The translations under genes were made by a program, and so were the position numbers. Of a stretch of DNA of 64,000 nt, positions 3,685-49,585 are shown piece after piece. Each line of letters begins with the position of its first letter. Positions within the stretch are counted from its first letter, which is position 1. The stretch is from contig WGOC01000022.1 of NCBI GenBank assembly GCA_016124235.1, forward strand, positions 157,923-221,922, in the 5' to 3' direction. Under the pieces are notes generated by a model that saw nothing but the letters and a program-made list of their open reading frames with translations, was not told the DNA's origin and did not search any database. The stretch comes from a bacterium. Its GTDB lineage: Bacteria > Verrucomicrobiota > Verrucomicrobiia > Limisphaerales > RI-55.

Positions 3685-3697
3685 CATAGGATTTATC

Positions 3698-34185: not shown

Positions 34186-34351
34186 TAAAGCACCTTTGGG
34201 CATTTTCGGAAGTGGGTTGCCCCAACGGGGCAATGTCATTCAGCCCAGGGTTGGAGCAACGCGACTATCGACGACGAGGACCCGCCTTCGCCTGACAACG
34301 GCTTCGGCGCGGCAGGCGAGGACGATGGGTTATAACGTGGTAGTTCGCGAT

Positions 34352-34387
34352 CGATCTGTGCGGACCGCGCGAAGGATTGTTCCAAAA
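34352..34387 (+). repeat. left-end bipartite repeat (CGATCTGTGCGG-N14-TGTTCCAAAA)
   Basis: CGATCTGTGCGGAC (34352-34365) is the exact reverse complement of 49687-49700. TGTTCCAAA (34378-34386) matches the complement of 49667-49675. It lies 70 nt beyond the stop of the MuB-like gene. Confidence 0.8.
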
Positions 34388-34457
34388 TCCGTCCGTACGC
34401 TCAGACGGGCCGCTTGGCGGCCTCTCCTTAAATCAGTTTTGCTAACAGCCGGAAGCG

Positions 34458-35969
34458 TCAACCGGCGAGGGCTGAGGCTTCCGGAAATCGGTGTTCGTGC
34501 GCTTCGGTAACTGGCACGGTGCCGCGTCGCTTGGTCGTCAGTTTCATGACGTTGCCGGGCAACTGCCGCGATGCCGCAGCACTGGGGCCGCGTGCCGGCC
34601 GCGCGGTTGCGTTTTGCCTGCCGAGAGCTTTCGTCTTTGCGAGCAAGGTGGGTTCGATTACCTCTTTCATTGCTCGTTCCAAGTCGGTCGATTTGATGGT
34701 GTCGCGTCCGGATTCTTCGGCGAGTGCTTGTGCCTCGGTGACGATGTCCTTGATCGCATCGAGCTGGTGTTCTTTCAGTGATGCGTAGGCGGCCACGACA
34801 CCCACAAGCGTTTCGCTGGCACCGGGCAGAAGCGCGCGTGCGACGATGCGCAGATCTGAATCCCCCAGACGTGGGGGCAGTTCCACGAATCGTTTGGAGC
34901 GACGCAGAAACTGTCCTGAGTTCCAGCCCGTGCATTTCTCGACGTTGGCGGCGAGCTGCGAAAACTGAGGCGTCGCAATGAGTGCCACGGGCACGCCAAA
35001 ATTGTTGAGTCCGGAATAGAGCCAGTCCAACAGGACTGGCCGGGCCACAACGCGCTTGGTTTGCGGCAGGAGGTAATGCCCTTCATCGATCACCAGCATC
35101 AAACCCGATCGCCGCAGAACGTCCGTCGCGCGGGGTTTCATTTCGTTGACCTTGCGCATGTAGGAACACGCGACGCCAACGGCGGCCGCCAGCTCACGAA
35201 AGAACTCGGTTTGATTCGTGGTGCTCGTGAGCGATACCCGCCGCACTTCGCCCTCGTGTGCGGCACACCAGGCGTTGACTGCTTCGGTCTTGCCGATGCC
35301 TTCACGACCTTCAATGACGATCATCTGATGGGTTCGCCGGCAGAAATCCAGTTGCTTCCAAATCGTCTGCCCCACCGACGTTAGAGCGTGAGCGTCGGCC
35401 GCGCGTTTGCAGTCGCGATGCATCAACTCCAGGAGCGACCCAAGCAAGTCCCTGAAGTAAGGGACCGCCGCCGTGCGGAATCCTTCCCGCACGTGCTCAC
35501 CGGTGAGACGGCTCACATCAGGAAGAACCTGTTCCATCACGTTGCGCTGATAACCGGCGCTCAGGTTGTCCGCGTCCGAATCCAATTCGATGTATGGGTT
35601 GACGCAGATTTGAATGAGATGCCTCGGGAGCTTTTCCAGCGCGACTTTTTGGTAATCAGTTCCGGTCGCCATCGCCGATTCACCCGACGCACGCGCGCCT
35701 CGATTCGATCCGGTCTTGCGCGCGGTTGGCGTGGGAAGATTTTCTGGAAACATTTCGACCAGGTCTCGCGCGATTGCCAACAGACCGCCGGGCATCTGGC
35801 TTCGTCCCTGAATCCAGAACAGCAAACGTTTGAGTTCGCTCCCGGTGAGCAAGCCCGCCTTCGCGGTCGTGGCCAGTCCGTTGATACTGCGCAAGGCAAC
35901 ATACTCTTCGGAGGACATCCAACGCTCCTGTGAGAGCGCGTCGCCACTGTTCTTAATCCGCGTCGTCAT
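34458..35969 (-). CDS. AAA+ ATPase, MuB/TniB/TnsC-like transposition protein
   Basis: Walker A GREGIGKT and Walker B LMLVIDEGHYL in the C-terminal two-thirds. The start overlaps the transposase stop (4 nt). 503 aa with a ~220-aa N-terminal extension. Confidence 0.75.
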   Translation of the reverse strand: MTTRIKNSGDALSQERWMSSEEYVALRSINGLATTAKAGLLTGSELKRLLFWIQGRSQMPGGLLAIARDLVEMFPENLPTPTARKTGSNRGARASGESAMATGTDYQKVALEKLPRHLIQICVNPYIELDSDADNLSAGYQRNVMEQVLPDVSRLTGEHVREGFRTAAVPYFRDLLGSLLELMHRDCKRAADAHALTSVGQTIWKQLDFCRRTHQMIVIEGREGIGKTEAVNAWCAAHEGEVRRVSLTSTTNQTEFFRELAAAVGVACSYMRKVNEMKPRATDVLRRSGLMLVIDEGHYLLPQTKRVVARPVLLDWLYSGLNNFGVPVALIATPQFSQLAANVEKCTGWNSGQFLRRSKRFVELPPRLGDSDLRIVARALLPGASETLVGVVAAYASLKEHQLDAIKDIVTEAQALAEESGRDTIKSTDLERAMKEVIEPTLLAKTKALGRQNATARPARGPSAAASRQLPGNVMKLTTKRRGTVPVTEAHEHRFPEASALAG

Positions 35970-38371
35970 GCCGTTTCTCCTTCCTCCTCTTTGGCGCGGC
36001 GCAACAGTTCGGCCAGATTCGCGGAGCCTGAATCAATATCTGCAGACCGTGATACCGTGGCGGAACTCAAGCCGAGCTTGTTCAAACGAGTGCGGCCCTG
36101 GTGCTCGCGACGTTCCTTGTCTTCACGTCGGCGGACGGTGTCAGTCCGCTGGCGTTCGATCTCTGCGCCAAGGGCCACCACCTTTCGGTCAACCAGGTTG
36201 ACGCGGAAGCTGAGTTCATGCTTCGACTTCAGCGTGCGATGTACGCCGGCCCAGTAGCGTTGGTGCCTTTGCACCTTGGCCGTTTCATCGGCAAAGGTTG
36301 CGTCCGGTTCGTCAAGCAACACGGCCAGAGCGTTGGGTTGGCGGCAACGTTCGATCGCTATCGGGTTCTCCTGTTTCATGTCGGTGACCACCAGCACGTC
36401 GGGAAGTTCGGGATCGATCCAGGCCAGCATGCGACGGCCTTCCATCGGCGAGAGATCTTCGTGGCGATAGGTGAACTTCTCCCCGCGCAAATTAAAGCTG
36501 ACCGCGCCGCCGCGAATGACCACCGGCTTGCGATGATGCGCCAACCAGTGGCGGCAACGCGCATCCAGTTTGACGATGTCATTCTTCGGCCACCATTTAT
36601 TGAACGCTTCCTCAGGGGAAAGGCCGCGCAGGTGTTTGCCTTCTTGGGGAGTCGCGTTGTACGTGGCGACATGAACGGCAAAGCGGTCTGCCCATTCTTC
36701 GATCGAATAGAATTGGTTGAGCGCAGAGGCTTCGCCGCGCCGTGCTTCCTTCAATAGGTTGGTCAACGCTTCCGGACGATCGTAACGCTCTTCGCGGCCG
36801 CAGTATCCCAATTCGCCGTCGGTCAGATTCTGCAGGAGCCCGATCACCAGTTCCACCGGCTTTGAGCGTGCGCGCCGTGCAGTGATGATGCGAACGCCCA
36901 GACGTTGCAGACCCAATTCGCGCTCCGCCGAGGGGATGTCATCCCAACCGGGAGCCCGCATCGCTTGCATCGTTTGTTTGCCGCCGGTCATCAGCTTGGA
37001 TTCGGCAAACACTTTGCCGCGCTCCAGATAGATGGCCTTGGGTATGCCAAACTCTTCAATCGCCTTCGCGGTGACCGTGAACGCAAGCAGGGAGTTGGGT
37101 TGCTCTTCGGGAATGATGCCGAAATGCAGAACGCGCAACGTGCGCAGATCGATGATCAGAATGATCTGGCCACGCGTGAGCTTCCAGCTGCCATCGGGCA
37201 ACGGCCAGCGCAGATAGAGATTCCAGGTCGCGTCATCGATGACCAGGCAGTCCATCGGCCGGATGCCATCGTATGAAAGATCCATCGGCGGTGATGCTTT
37301 ATCGGCCGCACGAGGTCCTTGATGGAATGGGGCGATCGCTGCGATGGCTGGTGTCACCTCGCGCCGCAGTGTTTCCGGAACGTATGATTTGCGAGCGCCC
37401 AGCTTGCCGCCTTTAACTTCGCGCACAGCCGGGGCCACGCGTCCCCGAAATTTGCGCAGCGACGTGTAAACAATGCGCTCCAGTTCTTCGGTGTTCAGCA
37501 CCTTGGCGCGCGCCGCATTGGCTGACGGTCGTTTGTCGCGCAGTTCCTCCCCGGCCTGGTACCGCCGCCAAGCACGATCGAACGTGACTCGTAATGCGTT
37601 CCGATTGGCTGCCAGTCCGGGCGCTTGCGCCATCAGGAAGGCGAAGAGTTTCTCACGCGCGGCTTTCTGGGTGATGCCACGATCGAATTGCGCCTGGCAC
37701 CATTCGCAAGCGTGAGTGAGCAACAATTCTTTTTCGTCGGCGGAAATTTGGAGCGGCGAATTCAGGCCATCGATGACGCGGGCAAGCGCGCCCCATGAAT
37801 CGGACGGCGGCCGTGAATTGGTCGCTCGACGTGCCGGCTGTTTTCGAGCCGGCCGTTCCGGCAGATAGATTTCGATCGCGTCCAGTGGCCAGCTGTTGCC
37901 GGCCCGGTCCAACGTGCGCTGAAATAATTCCCGCCAGTAGCGATCGGTGATCGGATGACCGAACTCGCGTTGATAATCTTCGCGGCCCATCGCCACCAGT
38001 TCACTTCCGGAGAATGTTGTGTCGTCACGGCGGGCAATCGCTCGAACGAGGGCGCGTCGCAACCGCGTGGCCTGCATCACAGCCTCTTCGGTGCAATCGC
38101 TCATCGCGACTTTTGGGGACCAGGCGTTAGCGGCATGGTCAAACGTGAGGAGCTGAACCGGGGAGGAAAATTGTTGTCGCTGGCTTTCGGTTTGCAGCTC
38201 TTGCTGAAGAGCAAATGGAAGCGAACCAAACAACCATGCACGGCGGCCGCCACCATCGAAATCAGGCGCCACGTGCGCGAGCCGGCGACGCATGACGCGC
38301 TCGCTGGCGCGCATTGCCCGGGCGATTTGTGCGGCGGTTACTAATTCAGATTGGTTGCCGCGTTCGCTCAT
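35966..38371 (-). CDS. MuA-like DDE (RNase H-fold, rve-type) transposase
   Basis: Core VIDDATWNLYL...LIIDLRTLRVLHFGI...AIYLERGKVF...KPVELVIGLL follows the rve pattern (D.T / viD..sR.i.g / DnG.eF / P..kg.iEr). Spacing D380-70-E450-57-E507 resembles MuA (67/56, from memory). N-terminal HTH-like segments are present. 801 aa. Confidence 0.8.
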   Translation of the reverse strand: MSERGNQSELVTAAQIARAMRASERVMRRRLAHVAPDFDGGGRRAWLFGSLPFALQQELQTESQRQQFSSPVQLLTFDHAANAWSPKVAMSDCTEEAVMQATRLRRALVRAIARRDDTTFSGSELVAMGREDYQREFGHPITDRYWRELFQRTLDRAGNSWPLDAIEIYLPERPARKQPARRATNSRPPSDSWGALARVIDGLNSPLQISADEKELLLTHACEWCQAQFDRGITQKAAREKLFAFLMAQAPGLAANRNALRVTFDRAWRRYQAGEELRDKRPSANAARAKVLNTEELERIVYTSLRKFRGRVAPAVREVKGGKLGARKSYVPETLRREVTPAIAAIAPFHQGPRAADKASPPMDLSYDGIRPMDCLVIDDATWNLYLRWPLPDGSWKLTRGQIILIIDLRTLRVLHFGIIPEEQPNSLLAFTVTAKAIEEFGIPKAIYLERGKVFAESKLMTGGKQTMQAMRAPGWDDIPSAERELGLQRLGVRIITARRARSKPVELVIGLLQNLTDGELGYCGREERYDRPEALTNLLKEARRGEASALNQFYSIEEWADRFAVHVATYNATPQEGKHLRGLSPEEAFNKWWPKNDIVKLDARCRHWLAHHRKPVVIRGGAVSFNLRGEKFTYRHEDLSPMEGRRMLAWIDPELPDVLVVTDMKQENPIAIERCRQPNALAVLLDEPDATFADETAKVQRHQRYWAGVHRTLKSKHELSFRVNLVDRKVVALGAEIERQRTDTVRRREDKERREHQGRTRLNKLGLSSATVSRSADIDSGSANLAELLRRAKEEEGETA

Positions 38372-40311
38372 GCCGCTGGAATCCCGATGGCTGTCCGATT
38401 TTTTCGGATGGTTTCAACAATGACGCGTTCGCCTTCCGCTGAGCGTGCCCAATTGATCATTGCGTTGCGATCGTCGAGAAGGCCGATGGAAATCTTTTGG
38501 GCACTGGGTGCCGCCACGGCCGGCATGGCTGCGGCTTTGCCGGAAGCGAGCGCGCGCAGATTGTTCACCCCGATCCGTGCCGTCTGTTGATCGGTGAATA
38601 CAAACTCACGTTTGTGAACTACCCCGGCCACCTGGTTGGGATCACCATCGCCGGTGTAGTCACCAGCCTTGTATCCGCCGTAATTCTGGCTGGCAATCGT
38701 CGCGACATTGGCTAACCCAGCGGCCGTGACGCCCGCGGCGGCGATGTAGTTGAGACCGGTTGGGTTTTCGCCCAAAGCCCGTGAGGCAGCGAGGTACGTG
38801 CTTATGATCGCCTCACTAACCGCAAGTGCCTTGTAAGCCACAAATCCTTTCGCACCGAATGCCTTGGAGGCTTCAGCGAAACCGGACAAACCCTGGATGG
38901 CCAGCTCCAGTTCGTTTTCGCGAATCTTCTTCCGCTTCTCTGCCTCCCGCCGTTTGATCTCCGTAATATCCTGCTCGGTCTGATCAATCTTATCCTTCAG
39001 GTCGAACCACTGATCAGCCACTTCCGCGAACGCCTTGGTGTAGGTTTCCCCGTCCGGCATAAACACGTGTTCAAACTTCTGCCCGATGTCAGCCTGGATA
39101 ATTTGGAGCTGATCTTTCTCGCGCTCCAGTTGCTGGATCAACCCTTCCGAAGTCAGGCCGGCTTCGTTACTGCGCATTGATCGGTAGGCCAGCGCGTTCT
39201 GGGTTGCGCGATCAACGCCCACCGGAGCTTTTTTCTCGGCACCACCAGGAACGTCGCCGGCATTATTGGATTGCTGATCAACGGGGATCGCATCCCACAT
39301 TTTCCCAGCCATTGCGGCCAATAACTGATTCCTTGGTGAGAGTGCCGCCATCGCAAATCGCTTAGCCAGCGACGCGATTGTGTCTGCATGCCTGATTCCC
39401 GCGTTGCCAACCTGAGTGGCCATCTGGGCCAGCTTGAATAGCTTGCCCATGCCTTCCACAAAACCAGGACTGTTTACCAGCTTGGTGAGTTCCTTGAACG
39501 TTGTCTCAAGCTCACCAAAGAAGCCCTTGCCAGCGTGGCCCGCCTGAATGTCAAATGATTGCTTAAGATTGGACCAGAGAACCGCGTAAGACTCTTTCGC
39601 CGCGTCGGTCGCTTCCTTGAAGCCAGTCAATTTCGTTTCCAGAAAATCGAACAGACGGCCTTCGCGCTGTGCGGTGAGCACATCCTCGCGTGTGATCCCG
39701 AGCGACTTTGCCAGGAATGAATCCGGCCCGATGTTACCCGTCAGCAAATCACGCGATTCCTGCGTGAGTTGCCGGCCCTCCAAACCGACTGCGCGTACAG
39801 CGTTGGCCAGATCTAATGCCAGCTGGACTTGCTGGTTTAACGGAATCCCTGCGCGAGACTGTGCCGCCGTCGTCGATTGAAAGAGTTCGACCAGTTCGCC
39901 GTACGTGGCCGCGCTTTCAAGTGACTTGACCTTAAGCTGCTCAAGCAACGCGTCGGAGATCTTCAACGCCTGGTTGAAGTCTGTCACTCGGTCCGGGTTC
40001 ATCGACCGCAGGATGGCCGCTATGCCGAGCCGTGACGTCTCCATCTGCTTGTTGAAGCTCACGCTCGTGTGGACAATGTCCTCCATCACTCCGAGCACTT
40101 CACGCAGACCGCGCAACATGATGCTGGTGAAGTTAATCCCCAGCCCGGTCTTCAGCGCTTGAATCCACGAGTTAGTGGCGGTGGTATTGTCCGCTGTCGT
40201 CTTCGCGGCGTTCTTCCCCTCATTCACCAACGATTTGAAACCTGCCAACGTGCTCTGCAGCTTGGCTAGCTCCGAGTTGATCTGGATGAGAATGTCAACC
40301 TTGTTGGGCAT
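38368..40311 (-). CDS. phage tail tape-measure-like protein
   Basis: 647 aa, largely helical and low-complexity. A TMP-core-like segment is present (ESAATYGELVELFQSTTAAQSRAGIPLNQQVQLALDLANAVRAVG). The C-terminal GGYKAGDYTGDGDPNQVAGVVHKREFVFTDQQTARIG matches the GYTG.G...AG.VH.gE.V signature recalled from lambda-type TMP C-termini. Not verified by HMM. Confidence 0.65.
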   Translation of the reverse strand: MPNKVDILIQINSELAKLQSTLAGFKSLVNEGKNAAKTTADNTTATNSWIQALKTGLGINFTSIMLRGLREVLGVMEDIVHTSVSFNKQMETSRLGIAAILRSMNPDRVTDFNQALKISDALLEQLKVKSLESAATYGELVELFQSTTAAQSRAGIPLNQQVQLALDLANAVRAVGLEGRQLTQESRDLLTGNIGPDSFLAKSLGITREDVLTAQREGRLFDFLETKLTGFKEATDAAKESYAVLWSNLKQSFDIQAGHAGKGFFGELETTFKELTKLVNSPGFVEGMGKLFKLAQMATQVGNAGIRHADTIASLAKRFAMAALSPRNQLLAAMAGKMWDAIPVDQQSNNAGDVPGGAEKKAPVGVDRATQNALAYRSMRSNEAGLTSEGLIQQLEREKDQLQIIQADIGQKFEHVFMPDGETYTKAFAEVADQWFDLKDKIDQTEQDITEIKRREAEKRKKIRENELELAIQGLSGFAEASKAFGAKGFVAYKALAVSEAIISTYLAASRALGENPTGLNYIAAAGVTAAGLANVATIASQNYGGYKAGDYTGDGDPNQVAGVVHKREFVFTDQQTARIGVNNLRALASGKAAAMPAVAAPSAQKISIGLLDDRNAMINWARSAEGERVIVETIRKNRTAIGIPAA

Positions 40312-40768
40312 GCGCGTTTGGGTTGATGGAAATCAGCTTCCCGAGTTCAGGGCTCAGTGCGACCGCCTGTGGCCAGAGATCCATGTGCGTGAGATCCGCG
40401 CCGATGCTGGCAAGTTCGGAAGTCATCATCTCGCGGGCGGACTCGGGAACGGATTCGTGACCGAGAAGATTTATGTACGTGGCTAACAGTTGCCGCTTGA
40501 TTTGCCCCAGCGTTTCGTTGTCTCGCAGGATCTCGGAACGAGACTCTTCAAAAACTGGACGATCAGGGCTGTCGAATGATGCGCCACCAACTGGAAACCG
40601 TGATTGGTGTTCGTCCATCCTTCGGGAGAGCGCGCTTTTCAACAGAACTCCCTGGTTGAGCAGTTCATCTCGACGCTGAAGAAGGCCGGCAATCTCAGTG
40701 GCGGTAACCGGGTCCCGACTAACGATAGCAATGGACATCGCTGGTTGGTTCGGCGTGCTCAAATTCAT
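40295..40768 (-). CDS. hypothetical protein (157 aa)
   Basis: Intact ORF in the operon. Its start overlaps the upstream stop by 4 nt and its end overlaps the TMP-like start by 17 nt. No family recognised. Confidence 0.5.
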   Translation of the reverse strand: MNLSTPNQPAMSIAIVSRDPVTATEIAGLLQRRDELLNQGVLLKSALSRRMDEHQSRFPVGGASFDSPDRPVFEESRSEILRDNETLGQIKRQLLATYINLLGHESVPESAREMMTSELASIGADLTHMDLWPQAVALSPELGKLISINPNAHAQQG

Positions 40769-41190
40769 GGGTTGCCTCCAGTTTCAAATTCGAGCGGGTC
40801 CAGATACACAGCCTCCCCGCACTCCGGACAATCGTAGAGGTGGCACTGATCCCACGTGCCTCGCCAATCGCAATGAACGCAGTGCGCGGTGTAATGGGAC
40901 GGCGGCTCAGTGAGCACAGCGCGTTGGCGCGCACTCATTAATTTGATGGGGACCTCGCTATTATACACAGCGCGCACTTCGTCATCGCTCCCAGCCCACA
41001 GCCAACCAAAGACAGTTTCCAGCCGGGCTTCCAGGAACCATCGAACATGATCGCGAAAGCCGTTGGGACGTTCCGGATATGGATAGGAAACGCGGTTCAC
41101 TAGGTTCATCAGACCGGCAAGCTGATTCATTCCCCACGAGCGGGCACGCTGAAGGGGGGAATTGGTGATCGTCGGCGGGTGCAGTGTCAC
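40765..41190 (-). CDS. hypothetical protein with C-terminal zinc-ribbon (CVHC...CPEC)
   Basis: 141 aa with HCVHCDWRGTWDQCHLYDCPECGEAVY. There are 4-nt overlaps at both ends. Confidence 0.55.
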   Translation of the reverse strand: MTLHPPTITNSPLQRARSWGMNQLAGLMNLVNRVSYPYPERPNGFRDHVRWFLEARLETVFGWLWAGSDDEVRAVYNSEVPIKLMSARQRAVLTEPPSHYTAHCVHCDWRGTWDQCHLYDCPECGEAVYLDPLEFETGGNP

Positions 41191-41780
41191 GATTCGCCTC
41201 CTTTGCTGAAATCTGGGGTTTGACGAGCTGAACAGGGCCGCTGCCGTTTGCTGCCGTTTGTACGTGCGCGGCTTTCGGCCGGTTCGCGGCTCAAGACAGC
41301 GGCCAAATCGTCCTGGGGCATTTTAGAGCGTTGCTTTCTGGCCACTTTGGAAGCCGGTTTTGGGCTCAGATGCCGTTCAGCCAAAAACTGCCGAGCCGAG
41401 GCGACGCTTACGAGCCGTTCGTGCCTGACTACGCGCCCGACAATCATCCCACGTCGACACAACTCCATAACGTGCGGTCGTGTGCAGGAAATAATTCTGC
41501 CCAATTCAATACAGGGGATCTCCAACTTGCCGGAGCCCGGCAGGATGAACAGCAACGCCGCATCAAGATTGTGAAAGCGTTGACCTCCGGGAAGGAGGGA
41601 TTCGGCAAGGATGCGGATCGCGCGCTTCCTCCGACCCAATCCAATATCGAATGCCCAGCGAATCTTACCCTTACGAATTAGGGCCTCGACTTCGGCGTAA
41701 TTCAGAAACAACGCGGACTGCAGGCTCACTGGTTTGACCAGGCGTGCGCGTGGCGGTGTGGCTGTTCGCGTGGCGGGCAT
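41187..41780 (-). CDS. putative DNA-binding protein (two excisionase/MerR-like HTH segments)
   Basis: 197 aa. LNYAEVEALIRKGKIRWAF and IISCTRPHVMELCRRGMIVGRV resemble HTH_17-type motifs. The tail is basic. Confidence 0.5.
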   Translation of the reverse strand: MPATRTATPPRARLVKPVSLQSALFLNYAEVEALIRKGKIRWAFDIGLGRRKRAIRILAESLLPGGQRFHNLDAALLFILPGSGKLEIPCIELGRIISCTRPHVMELCRRGMIVGRVVRHERLVSVASARQFLAERHLSPKPASKVARKQRSKMPQDDLAAVLSREPAESRARTNGSKRQRPCSARQTPDFSKGGES

Positions 41781-41783
41781 CCC

Positions 41784-42383
41784 TCAAAGTTTCTGCTGAC
41801 ATCCGCCAGTGACCCATGCCCGATAGCCAGCCGGATGCGCTTGCATTGCGGCGTCGAGTGCTTCCCCGCGCGTGGCGCCGGAGCCCAATTTGGCGTGGTA
41901 AGCGTTGACGAAATCATCAGGCGGCGCGGAACCTTGAACCACGGCGGCGGTTGGGAACGGTTCGCTGGGAACCCGGCACAACACGCTGTTGACGGAGACA
42001 CCCATCGTTTCCGCCAGCAATTCAGCCAGCGCCATGCGGTCCCAAGTGGATTCCTTGCCTTTCAGTGCGTCCGTGATCTGCTGATCATGCTGCGCGTTCA
42101 TCTCCCGGAGGTAACTCTTGCGGACGTTCGGATACTTCTCGCTGATCATACGTTCAGCGGTGGGCCGGTCCATGCCGAGATTCGAGACCAGCTGATCAAC
42201 CATCGTTGTGAATTGATGGGACTTCGCCGGGGCCGGGGCCGGGGCTGGTGAAGGTGCCGGGGCCGCCGCCTGGACGGGTAGGGGGGTTGGTCGAATCGTC
42301 TCGACGCTCGTCACGCGCAGCTCTTCCGGGGCCGGCCAGATGGGAGTGGAAAGCGCGCCTTTGATCAAAAATAATTCACTCAT
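41784..42383 (-). CDS. hypothetical protein with Pro/Ala-rich linker
   Basis: 199 aa with QAAAPAPSPAPAPAPA encoded by a GGGGCC-type short repeat (42226-42270). No family recognised. Confidence 0.55.
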   Translation of the reverse strand: MSELFLIKGALSTPIWPAPEELRVTSVETIRPTPLPVQAAAPAPSPAPAPAPAKSHQFTTMVDQLVSNLGMDRPTAERMISEKYPNVRKSYLREMNAQHDQQITDALKGKESTWDRMALAELLAETMGVSVNSVLCRVPSEPFPTAAVVQGSAPPDDFVNAYHAKLGSGATRGEALDAAMQAHPAGYRAWVTGGCQQKL

Positions 42384-42885
42384 GTGTGTCAGTTGGTTGA
42401 GGTGGAACTGCGAAAAAACCTTGGAAATCGGTGAACACCGTGATTTCCCGACGCACCAGGCCGACGGCGCTAATCAATTCGGCCGGGCAGCGGCGGTGAC
42501 ATCTGAACCAATTGGAGATCGCTGCCGGGCAATCTGGTTGCCGGGCGTAGGCTCGCCATGCTTTCTCGACCGAGCCGCGCGTAACCGTCAGAGTACGGAC
42601 GGAAGCAATCACCTCTTCAGTTAGAACGGATGAAAAACGCTTGGTGTGGCGGCGCCCTGATCGGTGCCACGCAGGGCGGAGGGCTTGAAAGCCGCCGGAT
42701 TGAAACGCGTGGAGATAGCGGTCCAACGTCTGCCGGCTGCAGCCCAGCTGGCGAGCTGCGGCGCTGCGGCCGTGGGCCTGCAGGAGGGTGGAATAATCTT
42801 CGATCAGCTGAAGACGTTCCTCGGCGATCTGGTTGGCACGGTCCATTGAAGCGAGTCTAGGTGATTTCTTCCGTTTCTGATTCAT
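42376..42885 (-). CDS. putative HTH DNA-binding protein (homeodomain-like/transposase-N-terminal type)
   Basis: AARQLGCSRQTLDRYLHAFQSGGFQAL is HTH_23-like. An alternative start is the ATG at 42846. Confidence 0.55.
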   Translation of the reverse strand: MNQKRKKSPRLASMDRANQIAEERLQLIEDYSTLLQAHGRSAAARQLGCSRQTLDRYLHAFQSGGFQALRPAWHRSGRRHTKRFSSVLTEEVIASVRTLTVTRGSVEKAWRAYARQPDCPAAISNWFRCHRRCPAELISAVGLVRREITVFTDFQGFFAVPPQPTDTHE

Positions 42886-43180
42886 GGGGCGGTCCGGGAG
42901 GATTGAAGCGCCCGTCGTCCAAGCGGGCGCCCTTGAATGTTACCGAATCCTCTCTCGCCGCGTATGCGGTCATCCAAAAATCAACGTCGTCCAAAAAGCA
43001 AAATGACAGGGGCCGCGCCGTGCCAACGCAACCCCTGTCACCCATACACCGATCGCCACCGACACCGCTTGGACTTGCGATTGTCGATTCGATGGTTTCG
43101 GCGGTAACCGAAGAGAGAACCGCCGAAATCAGGAGCGCCGCCCGCAGGCCGCGCAAATTAACTGGCACGATTGCCGGCAT
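42857..43180 (-). CDS. hypothetical small secreted protein
   Basis: The ATG at 43180 (TAATG overlap with the upstream stop) gives MPAIVPVNLRGLRAALLISAVLSSVTAE, a signal-peptide-like N-terminus. The track start at 43213 is also possible. Confidence 0.4.
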   Translation of the reverse strand: MPAIVPVNLRGLRAALLISAVLSSVTAETIESTIASPSGVGGDRCMGDRGCVGTARPLSFCFLDDVDFWMTAYAAREDSVTFKGARLDDGRFNPPGPPHESETEEIT

Positions 43181-43719
43181 TACTTTGTTTTCACGAGATA
43201 CGCGTTGAGGCAATCGATTGCCCGAAGCGCAAAGGCGACGTCGCCATCAAGGCCCGAATCATCACTCAACGGTGCGAATCCGAAGTGCCGCACGTCGTGA
43301 AGGTCCGTGCAGACGGGAAGGTAATCAAAGGCCATGCGGCGCATTTCCTCCCGCATTCCAGGATCGGAAACGAACAGGGTGATGTGTTCGGCAAATCGCT
43401 GGCCTTCCGCGACGTGAAGGTCATTGAAAGTCGTCGCAAAATTGCTTTTCAATGTCTTGATCTCCGCGCGCAGATCGCCGCAAATGGCCTGCAGTTCCTC
43501 GGGTAGTTTGGCCGCTTGGATCTGCAGCAAATCCATCCTGGTGCGCGCGCTCGCCAGCGCCGCGACGCCGGCTTCGTCGTTCGGCGAAGTCGAGTGGAGC
43601 AAGGCCTGGCAATGTTTACCCTGGGCGATGACGGCTTCGTCCTGCTCGGCGATCTTGCGCAGCATGGCGCGGCGTTGCTCGGCGACTTTTTTCAAATTGG
43701 TTGGGTCAAAATTCTTCAT
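43180..43719 (-). CDS. hypothetical protein (179 aa, helical)
   Basis: The start overlaps the Ner-like stop (ATGA). No family recognised. Confidence 0.55.
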   Translation of the reverse strand: MKNFDPTNLKKVAEQRRAMLRKIAEQDEAVIAQGKHCQALLHSTSPNDEAGVAALASARTRMDLLQIQAAKLPEELQAICGDLRAEIKTLKSNFATTFNDLHVAEGQRFAEHITLFVSDPGMREEMRRMAFDYLPVCTDLHDVRHFGFAPLSDDSGLDGDVAFALRAIDCLNAYLVKTK

Positions 43720-43955
43720 GGTTGGGTTGGGGTTGTTTGGGGCCAGAAATGAAGGCCAAAGAAATCTTCAATAGCTCTCCGCGCACGGGAGCATCTTCTT
43801 GCTGGTTGAGCGCCGTTGATGACGCCGTGAAGGTAGCGAGGTGAGTAACCAAGCCTTTCGGCCAATTCTTTTACCGTCATCCCCCGCGAAAGAATCTCAG
43901 CCCTGATTCGACGGCCGTTGCACGGATTGACGGATTGAGTTGCGAAACTTCGCAT
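43716..43955 (-). CDS. Ner-like (HTH_35) DNA-binding protein
   Basis: 79 aa. RIRAEILSRGMTVKELAERLGYSPRYLHGVING..P.......AIEDFFGLHFWP matches the Ner-family layout (HTH followed by a ..IWP-type C-terminal motif). It is divergent from the XRE-type repressor. Confidence 0.65.
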   Translation of the reverse strand: MRSFATQSVNPCNGRRIRAEILSRGMTVKELAERLGYSPRYLHGVINGAQPARRCSRARRAIEDFFGLHFWPQTTPTQP

Positions 43956-44031
43956 AGGTAACCAGCATTAAAGAAACCCGTAATGCGTGTCTTAGGAAAC
44001 ACAAAGTGTGTCCTGAGTCAAGTGGTTTTCT
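43956..44031. promoter_or_regulatory. divergent promoter/operator region between the Ner-like and repressor genes
   Basis: 76-nt intergenic region with GTGTCTTAGGAAACAC (43987-44002, GTGT/ACAC inverted) followed by a second GTGTGTCC (44006-44013). Confidence 0.45.
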
Positions 44032-44832
44032 ATGAGTAAGGCTCACATTCGATTGGAGACGTTTGGATCAAGGTTGCGTTGGGTGCGCGAACAATATGGC
44101 TTGTCGCTCGCTCAGTTTGGGCAGCGCTTCAATGTTACCAGAAGTTATCTGAGTAAGCTTGAAAGGGGCGCTGCTGTGAACCCTTCCACGGATATTGTTG
44201 ACTCGATTTGCGGCCTATATCGAGTACGAGAAAAGTGGTTGCTGGAGGGCGAAGGAATGCCGTTTGTGGATGATTTGACCAATGATCTTGCGAACAAAGG
44301 CAAGCTAAGTCCGCCTTTACAGCGAATCCCTCTCACGTCTAAGCAGAAGATGGAAATGGCGCCCTTATATGTGGCTGCGTCGGTTGTGAAAGTGCTTTCG
44401 GTTGGGCAGCTGGCGCATGCTCTCTCTGGTTTACTCAACGAGCATTCTTTGGATGATCCATTTATCGGGACAGCGGCAAGTATTTACGTTGATGAACTGG
44501 CGAAGCGGTTGAAGGAGTGGGAGGCTTCCGCTGATATTCAGAAAGCAATACCCAGTGAACAGCAGTCTACAATAGGTAAAACATATTTGACATCTAATGT
44601 TTCCCTGGCTAACCAAGACGACGTGAAGATTCCCGAAGGTTTGTGGCCCAAGATGGTTGGAAGGCTAAGAAAGCTTCTCGGTCCATCTGGAAAGAAGACT
44701 CAATTCGCTCGCGATCTCGGCGTGACCCGTCAAACGGTTCATCGTTGGTTGAACGTGGAAGAAGCCGAACCGTCCGGTGATCTTGCCCTCCGTATCCAGC
44801 GTTGGATTCAACTGGAGGAAAAAGCAAAGTGA
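44032..44832 (+). CDS. XRE-family repressor-like protein with two HTH segments
   Basis: N-terminal LRWVREQYGLSLAQFGQRFNVTRSYLSKLERG (HTH_3) and C-terminal KKTQFARDLGVTRQTVHRWLN (second HTH). 266 aa. Confidence 0.7.
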   Translation: MSKAHIRLETFGSRLRWVREQYGLSLAQFGQRFNVTRSYLSKLERGAAVNPSTDIVDSICGLYRVREKWLLEGEGMPFVDDLTNDLANKGKLSPPLQRIPLTSKQKMEMAPLYVAASVVKVLSVGQLAHALSGLLNEHSLDDPFIGTAASIYVDELAKRLKEWEASADIQKAIPSEQQSTIGKTYLTSNVSLANQDDVKIPEGLWPKMVGRLRKLLGPSGKKTQFARDLGVTRQTVHRWLNVEEAEPSGDLALRIQRWIQLEEKAK

Positions 44833-44893
44833 AACAAGGCGGCGCAATCGGTGGTCAAGACCGACTGCGCCAAGCCCAACGAAAGGTCCTATC

Positions 44894-45199
44894 GTGAGAA
44901 AAGAAATTCGTCAGGCCGACGAAGATAAGAGCACGTCGCCTGCCTCCCCACAATCGCAAAGGCGCAACCGCGCGCTTCCCAAGAGATCAGCGGTCATCCA
45001 GTTTTACGGAGCGGACGGCCGTGTCTTCTGTGAAGTTGAACTGACTCCAGAACTCTTTGCCGCCGTGCGAGGCGCCGCGCGCAAAGCCCGCTGCAGTGTG
45101 CTGACGTTCATCAAGCGGGCAATCGAGGCAAAGCTCGCTGCGTTGGAAGAGGCGCAACGTTCTGTATCCGCACTGAGTGCAGAAAGGAGCGCGAAGTGA
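44894..45199 (+). CDS. hypothetical protein, C-terminal ribbon-helix-helix-like fold
   Basis: VFCEVELTPELFAAVRGAARKARCSVLTFIKRAIEAKL fits a beta-helix-helix (Arc/CopG-like) pattern. The GTG at 44894 is preceded by GAAAGG. The start is uncertain (the ORF is open from 44777). Confidence 0.4.
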   Translation: MRKEIRQADEDKSTSPASPQSQRRNRALPKRSAVIQFYGADGRVFCEVELTPELFAAVRGAARKARCSVLTFIKRAIEAKLAALEEAQRSVSALSAERSAK

Positions 45200-45414
45200 A
45201 AAGCCGCCGCCGTCCGATCAAACAGCCGGCCAAGCCTCTCTATGACCGAGATGTCCTCGGTGAATTTGCGGATGTCGCGACATCTCTCAGCAGCCTGAAC
45301 GTTGGGGAATTGGAGGGTTTCATCCAACGGATGCGGGAATTTATCCGGGCTGCGGAAGCGCGTGTCGCCATGCTCCGAAATGAACCGCAACTCAACCCAT
45401 CAGCCCTTAACTAA
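45196..45414 (+). CDS. hypothetical protein (72 aa)
   Basis: GTGA start/stop overlap with the preceding ORF. No family recognised. Confidence 0.45.
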   Translation: MKSRRRPIKQPAKPLYDRDVLGEFADVATSLSSLNVGELEGFIQRMREFIRAAEARVAMLRNEPQLNPSALN

Positions 45415-45423
45415 GGAGGCCAC

Positions 45424-45681
45424 ATGGCAAAACGAATCATTACGAAAACGACGCCAGCCGACCTCGAACAGTTGCCACCGTGGCTCGAACATTTGGAGCC
45501 TGAACTGCGGAAGCTGGCGGTGGATTGGAACGCGGCAAAGCGCCGCCGGATGGCCGCCATGTTTTCGCGTTGGTCGGCCCAGTTGATTGAGTCGGCCGAC
45601 ATGATAGATGCCCATGAAGACGAAGGTGCTTTTGACTTGGAACAACGCAACGTGAAGGCCGGCAATCCCGCCTTCAACTGA
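45424..45681 (+). CDS. hypothetical protein (85 aa)
   Basis: The ATG is preceded by AAGGAGG (45412-45418). No family recognised. Confidence 0.5.
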   Translation: MAKRIITKTTPADLEQLPPWLEHLEPELRKLAVDWNAAKRRRMAAMFSRWSAQLIESADMIDAHEDEGAFDLEQRNVKAGNPAFN

Positions 45682-45690
45682 GGGCACACT

Positions 45691-45864
45691 ATGAAGACGC
45701 TCTTTTGTTCCGGTAAAGACGCCAAGTGTGCGTTGGTGGTAAAACGCGGCGCCCGTCGCCGCCTTCGCCATCTTCAGTTCGTCAACCCACACGGGGCGCT
45801 CGATTGGTGCATGGCTCGCGGCGTGTCGTTTGTGTGGGTGCCGGCTGGTGTTGAACCCGGCTAA
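45691..45864 (+). CDS. hypothetical small protein (57 aa, below the ORF-track cutoff)
   Basis: My own translation gives MKTLFCSGKDAKCALVVKRGARRRLRHLQFVNPHGALDWCMARGVSFVWVPAGVEPG, with stop TAA at 45862-45864 immediately before a strong hairpin. Confidence 0.35.
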   Translation: MKTLFCSGKDAKCALVVKRGARRRLRHLQFVNPHGALDWCMARGVSFVWVPAGVEPG

Positions 45865-45868
45865 AAAA

Positions 45869-45895
45869 GCGGCGGCAGGTTATCCCTGCCGCCGC
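45869..45895. terminator. strong hairpin (11-bp perfect stem) ending the repressor-side operon
   Basis: GCGGCGGCAGG-TTATC-CCTGCCGCCGC. It is preceded by AAAAAA (a U-tract only for minus-strand transcripts) and has no T-run on the plus side. Confidence 0.6.
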
Positions 45896-46428
45896 TCGCA
45901 GGCACTATCTCCAGATACGGAGAATCATGTCCGCAATGGTTAGGACGTCTTTGGCCAGCTTTAGGACCTTTTCTAAGGTCCAATATTTGTGGCGCCGACG
46001 TCCGCGATTGCGTCCGTTTCGCATGGGGTATTACCTCCATTGCAGGTCTCACGACCTCACATTGAACGCACGGTGTGTTTCCACACCTGACCCATGCGGA
46101 GCTTTACGCTCCACGCACCCGATGAGCAGCCACGGAAGCTTATGTCGCCGGGCACCTGCACGCTTCACTCGAACTCAAGACGCCCGTGGCAGGGTGAAAT
46201 TATTCCATTCCCTTTGGCTGTCAACGTGCCGCCCAGAAAGCGTTTGCAATGACCAGATCGCATGCTATGAATTCGTTTAGGAACGCCCGTCGTAATTCCC
46301 TCCAGCGGCACCTCCCACGCCGCGCTTCCTCTGATACCCGGCGGGCGTTTCCTTTTTCTCAGTGCTTGCGCCTGGTGACTGTTCTGCCACGGTAGCGAAG
46401 AACCGAGGCCGCGCATGTTGGACTCTGC

Positions 46429-46472
46429 AAAAAACCCGCCAGTGATTGAGTTCGCTGGCGGGTTTTTCTTTT
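46429..46472. terminator. bidirectional rho-independent terminator
   Basis: AAAAAA-CCCGCCAG-(12 nt loop)-CTGGCGGG-TTTTTCTTTT. It lies 9 nt beyond the end of the minus-strand ORF 46481-46663. Confidence 0.75.
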
Positions 46473-46480
46473 CTGCTGAA

Positions 46481-46663
46481 TCAGTTTGCCGCTTTGGCGT
46501 GAATAGGCACGTCCGCTCGCACCGGCGCCGGTGGTTGTGAAGGCGGCGGCGGCTGTGGCGGGGGCGGCGGCGGCCTGCTCCCAACGGGTGGAGGATTGTT
46601 TACGCCGCCTTTCTTAATCAGCCCTTCATTGGCCGCCATCATCGTTCTCGGTTTCTCGCTCAT
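46481..46663 (-). CDS. possible small proline-rich protein (60 aa)
   Basis: ...NNPPPVGSRPPPPPPQPPPPSQPPAPV... It overlaps the end of the upstream gene by 38 nt and ends just before the bidirectional terminator. Coding status is uncertain. Confidence 0.3.
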   Translation of the reverse strand: MSEKPRTMMAANEGLIKKGGVNNPPPVGSRPPPPPPQPPPPSQPPAPVRADVPIHAKAAN

Positions 46664-47351
46664 TTGATTCTTCAGTTGACTTGGGGTTCAGTTCGTCCGT
46701 CATTGGAATAGACCGGAACTCCAAAGCTATTTTTCCGCGCTCTAAGTCGAGGTACATCGCCCCGATGTTATAGAGCAAATTCCCATCACTGTTACGATAC
46801 ACGCCAACATCCCTAAGGTAAAGCTCGGCTTTTACACCATCGTCTGAAAACCCTAATATCCACCCGTCATAGGCAAGATCCCTGGCTGGATCTCGGACCG
46901 TAACCCACGATCCGCTCTTGTCCTGGATGTTCATTGCGTAGCCCCAAACATCCAGATTGCCTGATTTGTGGGTGAATCGGAATTTTCTCCCAATTCGATA
47001 AGGGATGCCAAGATTCAAAAGCGCTGAACTGCCGACGCCACTCACGATCGCGATGAGGCATGCTCCGATTAGCTCTGGAAAACTGATCGTCGAATCTTGC
47101 TTTAGCAGGTTTTCAAAGAAGCCCATTTTGGTGGGTAAGGACCACTCAAATTCCAGATTCAGTGATGGGCATATCCAAAGGAAGATGAACCACTCGACCA
47201 GGTAGCAACTGAGGCCAAAGAGCAGAACCTCAATTATGTAGAAGAAAGGCTCACGTTTTTTGATAACCGCGAACGCGTTGATGATCTGGGCGACAATGAC
47301 GCCCGGAAGAAATAGCAGCAGAGATCTGAACGCGAATTCTGATATCTCCAT
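46626..47351 (-). CDS. hypothetical membrane protein (about 4 TM helices + soluble beta-rich C-terminal domain)
   Basis: The ATG at 47351 (MEISEFAF...) is preferred over the TTG at 47396. Hydrophobic segments LLLFLPGVIVAQIINAFAV, FFYIIEVLLFGLSCYLVEWFIFLWI and LIGACLIAIVSGVGSSALL. The DNA is visibly AT-richer than its surroundings. Confidence 0.6.
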   Translation of the reverse strand: MEISEFAFRSLLLFLPGVIVAQIINAFAVIKKREPFFYIIEVLLFGLSCYLVEWFIFLWICPSLNLEFEWSLPTKMGFFENLLKQDSTISFPELIGACLIAIVSGVGSSALLNLGIPYRIGRKFRFTHKSGNLDVWGYAMNIQDKSGSWVTVRDPARDLAYDGWILGFSDDGVKAELYLRDVGVYRNSDGNLLYNIGAMYLDLERGKIALEFRSIPMTDELNPKSTEESNERETENDDGGQ

Positions 47352-47445
47352 TCCCGCTTTGTAACGTGCGCGGCGATTTTCGTCTATCCGAATCAACTAG
47401 GTCTTGAAGCATTTCGATTCGATCAGCACACTATTCCTATAGGAA

Positions 47446-48252
47446 ATGGAATTCGTCAGAGCTATTCCGTTTGAAGAAGCGGTCGCCAAACTGGGTGATC
47501 GTTCGGTTATTGGTTCGTGGCTGAAGTCCACCGAGTGGGCTGGTGTGCCAGTGGCGTTGCGCGATCGTGCCTATTTCTCCGCCACGGTCGAAAGTGTGCG
47601 CGTGCTGCAGCGTGGCCGCGATATGATCAACGATTTCCTCACCGGCGTGCGTGAGATCCTGCCGAATGGCGAAGTGGCGTTGAAGGCGGGTAGTCGTCAG
47701 GAGTTCGTGAAGCAGATGCAGAGCTTCATGGAGTCGGAGGGGATGATCCGTAAACACGGCGGCTTGTCCGACGTGGCCAGCCAGCGCCGGCTGGAATTGA
47801 TCTTCGATACGCAGACCAGACAGGCCCAGGAATATGGCACCTGGAAGCAGGGCCAAGACCCCGACGTGCTCGACGAGTTCCCAGCGCAGAGATTTATCCG
47901 CGTGCATTCCGTGAACGAGGCGCGCACTTCACACGCGGCGTTTGAAGGCGCTGTCCGCCTCAAGAGTGATTTGCAGTTCTGGCAATCGATCAATCAGGAT
48001 TTCGGCGTGCCTTGGGGGCCGTGGGGTTGGGGTTGCGGTCACGACGTGGAAGACGTGGACCGTGCCGAAGCCGAGTCGCTCGGCTTGCTGCAACCAGGCG
48101 AACCGGCCCGCCCGGTGGACAAGTCGTTCAACGATCAGCTGAAGGCATCAACGTGCGGCATTGATCCAGATCTGCAGGGCGTGCTGAAGAAACAGTTTGG
48201 CGAGCAGATCCAGAGCGAAGGGGACGCGGTGAATTGGAGGGGGCAGGAATGA
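47446..48252 (+). CDS. phage Mu F-like / SPP1 gp7-family head morphogenesis protein homologue
   Basis: IPFEEAVAKL N-terminus, RRLELIFDTQTRQAQEYGTW (compare R.ELIARTE...A.N.G), and RFIRVHSVNEARTSHAAFEGAVRLKSDLQFW (compare D.RTR..H..L.G......D.FW). Recognised from memory of the family motifs. Confidence 0.6.
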   Translation: MEFVRAIPFEEAVAKLGDRSVIGSWLKSTEWAGVPVALRDRAYFSATVESVRVLQRGRDMINDFLTGVREILPNGEVALKAGSRQEFVKQMQSFMESEGMIRKHGGLSDVASQRRLELIFDTQTRQAQEYGTWKQGQDPDVLDEFPAQRFIRVHSVNEARTSHAAFEGAVRLKSDLQFWQSINQDFGVPWGPWGWGCGHDVEDVDRAEAESLGLLQPGEPARPVDKSFNDQLKASTCGIDPDLQGVLKKQFGEQIQSEGDAVNWRGQE

Positions 48253-48575: not shown

Positions 48576-48586
48576 GGGGTAGTTGT

Positions 48587-49207: not shown

Positions 49208-49280
49208 GCGGCGCAGAGCGGCGAAATGCCGCCTACTGACTCTCTTGTCCGGCGGCTGATTTGTGAGATTCTGTGGGCCG

Positions 49281-49457: not shown

Positions 49458-49585
49458 GTCGCTGCCGGTATCTGGCAATGCGGCTGCCGGAGATGTGCTG
49501 CGACGCCTGTCGCGACGTCTAACCGGTTAATTCAGGACGCATCACTTATGATTAGACGAAGTGATTGAAAGTTGTCCGATGTCCC

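Follow-up and report, generated by a model that had tools for sequence, protein, structure and literature searches.

Three genes closing a Mu-like operon

The 64,000-nucleotide window analyzed here (contig WGOC01000022.1 of assembly GCA_016124235.1; all coordinates below are window positions) contains a Mu-like element of 15,502 bp at 34338-49839, and the early operon of this element is closed by three adjacent genes, encoding a homolog of phage tail tape-measure proteins (TMPs), a MuA-like transposase and a MuB-like protein:

38368-40311, minus strand: TMP homolog, 647 amino acids (aa)
35966-38371, minus strand: MuA-like DDE transposase, 801 aa
34458-35969, minus strand: MuB-like AAA+ target-DNA activator, 503 aa

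An earlier note on this DNA had called the first of these genes tape-measure-like, and had asked whether its product is a true TMP or shares only a C-terminal motif with that family. We find a true TMP homolog, as indicated by PHROG matches at both ends of the protein, tblastn matches, the spacing of the motif and Foldseek. Two PHROG families, phrog_30973 and phrog_10093, match residues ~66-279, while phrog_3336 (1.2e-29) and phrog_1506 match residues ~420-642; an E-value of 1.3e-19 is also among the PHROG TMP-family matches. A tblastn search against 50,697 phage records matched 62 records, with the matches listed being almost all annotated TMPs, isolated phages included; these matches lie at residues 74-281 and 406-642, with identity of up to 50% over residues 494-588. 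The protein has a single strongly hydrophobic segment (~522-541), and its C-terminal motif GxYTGxG..VAGVVHxxE[FY]V (GDYTGDGDPNQVAGVVHKREFV), at residues 550-571, is located 76 residues from the C-terminus, at the same distance as in the phage TMPs P0003 and P0007. An AlphaFold2 (AF2) model is all-alpha, with low confidence overall (pLDDT 51) and confident only at residues 81-245, and its best Foldseek matches (BFVD) are TMPs, with E-values down to 1e-6 and with the low TM-scores that are expected for proteins of this type. Curated TMP models, among them those named in the earlier note, do not recognize the protein: there is no Pfam-A match at E<=0.01 and no NCBIfam match at E<=0.05, including to PF10145, PF09718/TIGR01541 and TIGR01760, and comparison of the TMP profile with solved structures returned coiled-coil noise alone. 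TMPs of sister elements also match PHROG TMP families (7e-26 in L025, 4e-25 in L031), and below the cutoffs match TIGR01541 (L025, 1.5e-17) and PF09718 (L031, 1.4e-3). On these comparisons, the homology of the 647-aa protein to phage tail tape measures is genuine and extends well beyond one common motif. It is shorter than related phage TMPs (959-1091 aa) and lies outside any tail module, with two small unassigned ORFs and the MuA-like transposase as its neighbours.

The nearest non-orthologous relatives of this protein are phage TMPs (P0003-P0008, retrieved with the window protein as query), with the TMP-like proteins of sister elements being more distant, and this suggests exchange with phage TMP pools. 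For example, P0003 is a 1091-aa TMP in an ordinary tail module, ahead of distal-tail, NlpC/P60 and hub-size genes; contig L006 is a tail module with a near TMP relative and the Mu-type marker Gam; L121 encodes a Mu-like protease, the major head protein phrog_1005 and, further along, a TMP; and P0006 comes behind the genes for a Mu-like protease and for a major head protein. The 853-aa gene that follows TMP P0005 in L122 is not a MuA homolog. A separate observation concerns L005 (a 7.6-kb Logan contig from SRR32020628), where only four small genes separate a GpA-type large terminase from the 638-aa TMP homolog (P0004) that follows it. Neither a portal nor a capsid gene could be recognised in this interval, which makes the layout oddly compact.

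The 801-aa protein matches the transposase family PHROG_310 over residues 8-743 (7.7e-30), and hhalign of its family profile against phage Mu MuA gives a probability of 75% (E 2.5e-5), with ~21% identity over the aligned region; the closest isolated phages are only ~23% identical to this MuA-like family, and a search of the family profile against solved structures gave no match. This alignment pairs the invariant residues D379 and E507 with MuA D269 and E392, respectively. The second catalytic aspartate of MuA is D336, in D336-N-T-R-G, and at this position the 801-aa protein has an invariant E450-R-G, with E-R-G present in 18 of the 18 aligned members, which suggests that the transposases of this family use a D-E-E rather than a D-D-E triad. 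The 503-aa protein matches Pfam AAA_22 (7.5e-15) and TniB (6e-5) as well as PHROG_296, 'DNA transposition protein' (1.5e-19), and its only sequence match in the PDB is phage Mu MuB (8xvb, E 0.009).

The junctions between these genes are as the earlier note described them, with the 647-aa ORF ending in GCA TGA and the ATG of the 801-aa ORF located within the ATGA at 38368-38371, and with the stop codon of the 801-aa ORF and the start codon of the 503-aa ORF sharing a second ATGA at 35966-35969. From this coupling the note had argued for a specific tie between the TMP homolog and the transposase, and for an action of the former with the transpososome. The three genes form the distal end of a ten-gene minus-strand operon, which begins with a Ner-like gene (43716-43955) and which we infer to be co-transcribed, and 4-nt overlaps occur at 5 of its 9 junctions (Ner/w179, w197/w141, w141/w157, TMP/MuA and MuA/MuB), with two further junctions overlapping by 8 nt and 17 nt. 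A 4-nt start/stop overlap is the commonest type of overlap in bacterial operons. Since most junctions of this operon overlap, tight coupling is a property of the whole operon and is not special to the TMP/transposase pair; the argument from ATGA is thus not supported, and none of our results shows an action with the transpososome. In the relative L001 the TMP stop and MuA start codons abut without overlap (TAAATG), and the distant relatives L050 and L055 have a 4-nt TMP/MuA overlap. Two other statements of the note hold: the gene arrangement is unlike that of known transposable phages, and tail genes are absent, in fact from the whole 64-kb window, where the large ORFs tested outside the element are host genes.

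The TMP-MuA-MuB triad is conserved in other genomes and is under purifying selection. Four Logan contigs (L001-L004) contain the same gene order with intact ORFs at 81-91% nucleotide identity, with the TMP 84% identical and with the order running from the repressor through, among others, ORFs of 196, 141 and 154 aa to TMP (648 aa), MuA (801 aa) and MuB (541 aa). Comparison of the window with L001 gave ratios of non-synonymous to synonymous substitution rates (dN/dS) of 0.09 for TMP, 0.11 for MuA and 0.28 for MuB. The arrangement recurs in elements where MuA is only ~30% identical, and stand-alone contigs of 12.4-14.5 kb cover whole elements. A recent deletion joint at 38368-38371, which the note had named as a reason to doubt the arrangement, is contradicted, together with recent decay, by this conserved synteny, the intact ends and the dN/dS values.

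Ends and gene map of the element

The remaining features of the element and its borders are as follows.

34334-34337, no strand: flanking direct repeat AACG, left copy, putative target-site duplication
34338-34367, plus strand: MuB-side terminus, 5'-TGGTAGTTCGCGATCGATCTGTGCGGACCG, terminal inverted repeat and probable transposase site
40295-41190, minus strand: w157 (157 aa) and w141 (141 aa, CxxC..CxxC zinc ribbon), overlapping, just upstream of TMP
41187-42885, minus strand: w197 (a small protein found family-wide), w199 and a helix-turn-helix (HTH) protein of 169 aa (HTH169)
43001-43043, minus strand: 20-pair hairpin stem with a T-run behind it, terminator-like, between the w179 gene and the HTH169 gene
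43180-43955, minus strand: Ner/Cro-like HTH protein (79 aa, 43716-43955) and w179, the first genes of the operon
44032-44832, plus strand: c-type repressor, XRE HTH, 266 aa (HTH_3 2.7e-16, PHROG repressor families)
44777-45681, plus strand: small ORFs of 140, 72 and 85 aa in the repressor-side arm
46626-47396, minus strand: gene for a DUF6338-like membrane protein, in a ~1-kb insert (Pfam DUF6338 6e-5, below cutoff)
47446-49207, plus strand: MuF-like minor head/DNA-pilot homolog (268 aa, 47446-48252), then ORFs of 113 and 206 aa
49587-49710: subterminal repeats of the end motif TCTGTGCGG, copies at 49587 (plus) and 49689 (minus)
49810-49839, minus strand: repressor-side terminus, reverse complement 5'-TGAATGTTCGCGACCGAGTTGTACGCTCGC
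49840-49843, no strand: flanking direct repeat AACG, right copy
49854-49928, minus strand: tRNA-Val(GAC), outside the element, with its CCA end 14 bp from the terminus (ARAGORN; Rfam tRNA 3.8e-13)

The termini were fixed by comparison with the ends of L007, a 12.6-kb stand-alone contig with inverted repeats beginning 5'-TGTAAGTTCACGACC... at both ends, and by a tRNA-anchored alignment of all relatives. They fall at 34338 (TGGTAGTTCGCGATCGATCTGTGCGGAC) and 49839 (reverse complement TGAATGTTCGCGACCGAGTTGTACGCTC) and are of the TG..CA type (TGGTAG.../TGAATG...), agreeing at 19 of 30 inverted-repeat positions. The MuB-side terminus resembles the termini of L007 (TGTAAGTTCACGACCGACTTGTCCGGTC) and is located 120 bp past the MuB stop codon, where the usual distance in relatives is 115-150 bp. 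Earlier estimates of the ends, at 34309 and at ~49715-49745, had been taken from the limit of homology to L002 and from the TCTGTGCGG repeats, and were replaced after the L007 and tRNA-anchored comparison; homology to L001 and L002 ends near 34309 on the MuB side, with unrelated DNA beyond it in L002. The 9-mer TCTGTGCGG occurs in three exact copies in the 64 kb, against 0.62 expected, all at the ends of the element, where they represent terminal or subterminal sites. Beyond the TG terminus on the MuB side, the ~29 bp at 34309-34337 are partly common to L002 (8252-8280), with GCGGCAGGCGAG identical and the farther flanks different; these common bases may be a remnant of a tRNA-downstream hairpin or reflect a target preference.

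Several of the smaller genes can be placed in families. The 79-aa HTH protein (HTH_3 8e-6, PHROG HTH/repressor families) is divergent from the repressor gene, as in Mu, and repressor homologs occupy the same divergent position in at least 27 loci; from their position and family, these two genes would form a repressor/Ner-type switch. Homologs of w197 are present in 19 loci and of HTH169 in 9, with HTH_29/HTH_28 matches among the w197, w199 and HTH169 genes, and w199 aligns with residues 154-298, i.e., the C-terminal part, of a 298-aa Mu-like_Pro_N protein in L001. The 157-aa and 141-aa ORFs are kept in L001 at 75-83% aa identity (dN/dS 0.23-0.28); they have no Pfam, PHROG, NCBIfam or PADLOC match, and no sign of a tail-assembly-chaperone identity. 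The ORFs of 72 and 85 aa are 89-93% identical in L001, and neither these nor the 140-aa ORF has a family match. The hairpin at 43001-43043 may act as an attenuator or an early terminator; promoter and terminator scans returned counts not above the shuffled expectation. The MuF-like protein matches phrog_220, 'minor head protein and DNA pilot' (7.7e-15), with orthologs in L001, L009, L023, L078 and L092. The ~1-kb insert (~46472-47440) is absent from L001, where blastn joins window ~46472 to ~47440; beside it, 46364-46472 is kept in L001 and contains a 16-pair hairpin with a weak, sub-threshold match to the Rfam family rnk_pseudo. Within the element, no capsid, portal, terminase, tail-tube or lysis gene was recognised, with TMP and MuF being the only virion homologs, and the largest unassigned ORF is of 206 aa (excluding the 256-aa DUF6338-like insert). 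A search of Rfam for known RNAs or an RNA guide found the flanking tRNA alone, and PADLOC matched no protein of the element as defence cargo.

The rest of the window is host chromosome with planctomycete-type genes (PSCyt/PSD1, DUF1501, ABC-2 permeases, PurH and polysaccharide genes). Four consecutive, partly overlapping ORFs of ~550-650 aa at 1993-8624 have ABC-2 permease-type domains in 3 of 3 tested, and this region has a markedly negative AT skew. The region 16000-22000 combines low GC (0.48-0.52, against ~0.57) and strong positive GC skew with a gene for a beta-barrel porin-like protein and one for a polysaccharide co-polymerase of the Wzz/GNVR tyrosine-kinase type, and may be a horizontally acquired polysaccharide-export island. 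Immediately beyond tRNA-Val, at 50007-63958 (minus strand), lie giant ORFs of 3399 aa and 1251 aa, and the latter, the sole one of the two scanned, contains glycosyltransferase, methyltransferase and pyruvyl-transferase domains.

A family of small Mu-like elements beside tRNA genes

Relatives were collected by a MuA protein search followed by a MuA-alignment scan of GTDB genomes and JGI metagenomes, and the resulting loci were processed by ORF calling, clustering and jackhmmer labelling. The family comprises 116 MuA loci, or 96 clusters at 95% identity, mostly from metagenome-assembled genomes of Verrucomicrobiota and from peat, soil and lake/freshwater metagenomes, with Planctomycetota also represented. 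A scan of IMG/VR viral contigs found no family member, as would be expected of elements without viral hallmark modules. Whole elements are of 9-15.5 kb, with MuA and MuB accounting for ~4 kb, and share a layout of a repressor gene on one strand and, on the other, an early operon that ends with a large helical protein, MuA and MuB; MuB is often followed by a 165-aa protein that matches GemA weakly, below threshold. Counted over the 44 non-redundant loci with repressor, MuA and MuB, which we class as complete, their composition is:

TMP homolog: 14 of 44
FAM4 (459-634 aa): 23 of 44
neither TMP nor FAM4: 7 of 44
HK97-type capsid fusion: 11 of 44
Mu-type prohead protease: 9 of 44
MuF: 5 of 44, with TMP present in 5 of these 5
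Portal_Mu: 1 of 44

A large helical protein, either TMP or FAM4, is therefore linked to the transposase and its partner in 37 of 44 complete loci (84%). The TMP gene is located directly upstream of MuA in 12 clusters (with a 4-nt overlap in the window, L050 and L055), slightly farther upstream in 4, and directly after MuB in a further 4 (overlapping it in L049 and L091). Among the other virion homologs, the capsid fusions match Phage_capsid at 3e-17, the protease matches Mu-like_Pro and the L007 portal matches Portal_Mu at 1.6e-43. The capsid fusions themselves (L025 3553-5499, L027 5201-7147, L026, L050 and L108) are ~650-aa proteins in which a ~380-aa N-terminal extension precedes an HK97 Phage_capsid domain at the C-terminus; PHROGs annotated as 'major head protein' match them over their full length, and the elements that encode them have no portal or terminase.

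FAM4 is an all-helical family of 459-634 aa, and roughly half of the elements have one of its genes immediately before MuA (L011, L013-L017, L020-L022, L024, L027-L029, L032, L033, L036, L124-L127 and others). Its genes are seen in this context only, and an independently looked-up FAM4 homolog was again located right before MuA/MuB. FAM4 has no Pfam, PHROG or NCBIfam match, and its AF2 model, all-helical and of low confidence, retrieves nothing in Foldseek at E<=1e-3. In hhalign it matches TMP at the N-terminus only, with a local probability of 84% (E 7e-6; 47% with an earlier, smaller alignment), and a 'global' value of 96% is unreliable for coiled coils. With this weak N-terminal profile match and no family or Foldseek match, FAM4 could not be established as a TMP.

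In ~33 non-redundant loci, the CCA end of a tRNA gene is located 13-16 bp (mode 14) from the terminus of the element. At least eight isotypes are represented (Val, Arg, Glu, Ala, Met, Gly, Leu and SeC), and in nearly all of these loci the element is oriented with its repressor-side end towards the tRNA; in two (L039 and L050) it is the MuB-side end. For 12 of 25 evaluable elements, including the window, a script found TG..CA ends, with 16-27 of 30 inverted-repeat matches, bordered by a perfect direct repeat of 4 bp; a 5-bp, Mu-type target duplication was not found. Many contigs end 115-180 bp past the last gene, in the manner typical of assemblies interrupted by a mobile element. By the pattern of these borders, the family is characterised by site-specific, orientation-biased transposition with a 4-bp duplication. 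Pfam, NCBIfam and PHROG scans of element ORFs detected no TnsA, TniQ, TnsD or Cas protein, with very divergent selectors still possible. Our literature search found no description of Mu-type satellites, of transposase-linked TMP genes or of tRNA-homing MuA/MuB elements, and this family of small tRNA-homing Mu-like elements is apparently undescribed.

Role of the TMP homolog and comparison with known systems

The reading that we favor, tentatively and at a rough probability of 0.45, is that of a helper-dependent, satellite-like transposable element in which the TMP is still a virion or ejection protein. The element keeps what would be a c/ner-type switch, one tightly packed 'lytic' operon, TG..CA ends and a few virion homologs (TMP and, on the other arm, MuF). 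On derepression, this single operon would produce MuA and MuB for transposition together with the 647-aa TMP. The latter would be incorporated into tails that a co-resident siphovirus of the Mu-like type provides, would specify a tail of ~100 nm (647 aa at ~0.15 nm per residue), and would be ejected ahead of the DNA at the next infection. The position of the TMP gene beside the transposase would follow from the element having a single lytic transcription unit, and from the small quantity in which each of the two proteins is required. With no means of making a virion itself, the element would have to rely on a helper phage, probably a siphovirus of the Mu-like type. A retained virion or ejection function is favored by the conservation of both ends of the TMP with a dN/dS of 0.09, by the presence of its nearest relatives in normal phage morphogenesis modules, and by the occurrence of MuF, a DNA-pilot-type protein, only alongside TMP and of lone capsid, protease and portal genes in sister elements. 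Satellites are known to use homologs of virion proteins to redirect the assembly of their helpers (PMC6893505).

Several points weigh against this reading. No helper phage was identified, a scan of IMG/VR for helpers returning none; the one indirect hint of such a phage comes from the phage modules that encode the nearest TMP relatives, two of them with Mu-type markers (Gam in L006, the Mu-like protease in L121). Particle formation, packaging of the element and incorporation of the protein into tails are steps that we infer. Upstream of the TMP gene we did not recognise a pair of tail-assembly-chaperone genes with a frameshift. Across the family, this gene stays with MuA/MuB and not with the capsid or protease genes, which would also fit a role in transposition. 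The closeness of the window protein to phage TMPs carries an ascertainment bias, in that P0003-P0008 were retrieved with that protein as query. The link between FAM4 and TMP is weak and FAM4 occupies the slot in most relatives, so a tail role cannot be generalised to the family. Finally, we know of no satellite with a TMP gene or Mu-type transposition, and our literature search found none.

A transposition cofactor is the first alternative to this satellite-like element, one that we regard as unlikely while taking it seriously: TMP, or FAM4 in relatives, would work directly with MuA/MuB as an end-binding or end-protecting pilot, a scaffold or a selector of tRNA sites. The linkage of a large helical protein to these genes in 37 of 44 complete loci, with frequent translational coupling to MuA or else a position after MuB, speaks for such a role, as does the restriction of FAM4 genes to the MuA/MuB context. 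Tn7 and Tn5053 keep their target selectors after the MuB-type gene, which is where the TMP gene is located in some of these elements, and no TniQ, TnsD or Cas that could account for targeting to tRNA genes was detected. Mu N, a tail protein that is ejected and binds the ends of infecting Mu DNA, offers a precedent. However, 7 of 44 complete loci have neither TMP nor FAM4, and three of these (L010, L107 and L116) still have a tRNA gene on the repressor side, L010 also with the ~15-bp spacing and a 4-bp repeat. In addition, phage TMPs are nearer to the window TMP than the TMP-like proteins of sister elements are, whereas co-evolution with MuA predicts the reverse; the window TMP retains the C-terminal motif common to bona fide tail TMPs, no DNA-binding domain was detected in it, and its ATGA coupling is generic to the operon. 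An extension of the cofactor idea, which we likewise think improbable, would make these elements a new class of mobile element, MuA/MuB 'transposable satellites' that home 14 bp downstream of tRNA genes with a TMP-derived protein, either TMP or FAM4 as its possible derivative, as an obligatory transposition partner; for example, this protein could be an ejected pilot that delivers incoming element DNA either to the transpososome or to the target beside a tRNA gene.

We give somewhat less credit to a role in assembly interference or defence, in which a truncated TMP, and elsewhere in the family also the MuF, capsid or protease homologs, would act as a dominant-negative decoy that poisons tail or head assembly of invading or helper phages, for the benefit of the element or its host. 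Precedents exist in the capsid-redirecting proteins of satellites and in prophage-encoded blockers of tail assembly (PMC6893505, PMC10884400). The sets of structural homologs are partial and variable between elements, and the length of 647 aa, against 959-1091 aa in related phage TMPs, would suit such a decoy, but the absence of any PADLOC match among the element proteins does not, the conserved termini and low dN/dS fit a working TMP equally well, and the gene is part of a repressed lytic operon and is not among the lysogeny-expressed genes.

Two further explanations have little to commend them. A decaying Mu-like prophage, with the junction a recent deletion or rearrangement scar and the TMP a functionless remnant, would explain why almost all morphogenesis genes are absent and why w199 is only the C-terminal part of the protein that carries a protease domain in L001, but is very improbable given the selection on TMP, the same order and intact ORFs in L001-L004, the recurrence of the arrangement at ~30% MuA identity, the intact ends and flanking repeat, and the stand-alone contigs. 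An autonomous miniature transposable phage, the remaining structural genes of which are too divergent to recognise, is scarcely credible: many element ORFs have no detectable homologs, but the unassigned ones, at <=206 aa, are too small for a portal, large terminase or capsid, and MuA and MuB already fill ~4 kb of elements of just 9-15.5 kb.

Transposable phages (Mu, and the siphoviral D3112, B3 and RcapMu) share with the element a divergent c repressor/Ner-like switch, an adjacent pair of MuA-type and MuB-type genes, and TG..CA termini with repeated end sites, and share with its relatives a weakly GemA-like gene after B and homologs of the Mu-type protease, portal and MuF. These phages are of ~35-40 kb with complete modules, whereas the elements are of 9-15.5 kb and have no head, tail or lysis modules. 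In the element, A and B are located at the distal end of the operon beside the terminus, and not beside the repressor as in Mu; the Mu TMP gene is tens of kb away in the late region, whereas that of the element abuts the transposase, an ~800-aa protein that retains ~21% identity to MuA over the aligned region. Mu inserts nearly at random with a 5-bp duplication, and the element family inserts 13-16 bp downstream of tRNA genes with a 4-bp repeat. Textbooks present transposable phages as complete viruses that transpose almost at random, and this family points to a widespread relative of different design, which keeps selected virion genes only, the most consistent of them a tape-measure-type protein beside the transposase.

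The 647-aa protein resembles siphovirus TMPs of the lambda gpH type in being all-alpha and extended, with an N-terminal TMP domain, a hydrophobic segment and the C-terminal motif, but is ~300-450 aa shorter than its closest phage relatives, has no chaperone or distal-tail neighbours, is encoded in an early-type operon with a transposase, and is missed by the curated Pfam/TIGRFAM TMP models. The likeness to Mu N (gp43, the DNA circularisation protein), which is internal to the tail, is ejected and associates with the ends of infecting DNA, is conceptual only, and Mu N is not a tape measure. If the protein does work in transposition, a tail 'ruler' would have been recruited to a DNA-recombination machine, and if it is an obligatory partner, phage DNA ejection would be physically coupled to site-specific transposition.

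Phage satellites (P4, PICI, cfPICI and PLE, and SaPIbov5 with Ccm) are also small, repressor-controlled islands without a virion of their own that encode selected virion homologs (capsid-type, scaffold or protease, MuF or TMP). Known satellites use integrases and their own replicons, whereas this element has Mu-type transposition and a proposed helper dependence; the Pseudomonas AH14b satellite, which is of the P4-like type, lacks a transposase. Helper dependence, if real, would make these elements, to our knowledge, the first transposing phage satellites and the first satellites with a tape-measure gene.

Tn7-like and Tn5053-type elements (TnsB/TniA with TnsC/TniB and TniQ/TnsD) share the DDE transposase and an AAA+ regulator of the MuB/TnsC clade, and Tn7-like elements likewise insert with an orientation bias and at a set distance downstream of a conserved gene. 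Homing to tRNA genes is also known from some Tn7-like elements and CRISPR-associated transposons (PMC10293859). In contrast to Tn7-like elements, no TnsA, TniQ, TnsD or Cas was detected in this element, its regulation is of the phage type and virion homologs are present; and where Tn7-like elements have a 5-bp repeat and one att site, this family has a 4-bp repeat and uses tRNA genes of many isotypes. A tRNA-homing mini-Mu family makes the finding more interesting than the single junction had suggested, and whichever role the TMP homolog has, the family provides a compact MuA/MuB pair with a built-in, apparently protein-encoded, safe-harbour targeting beside tRNA genes, of possible use in genome engineering.

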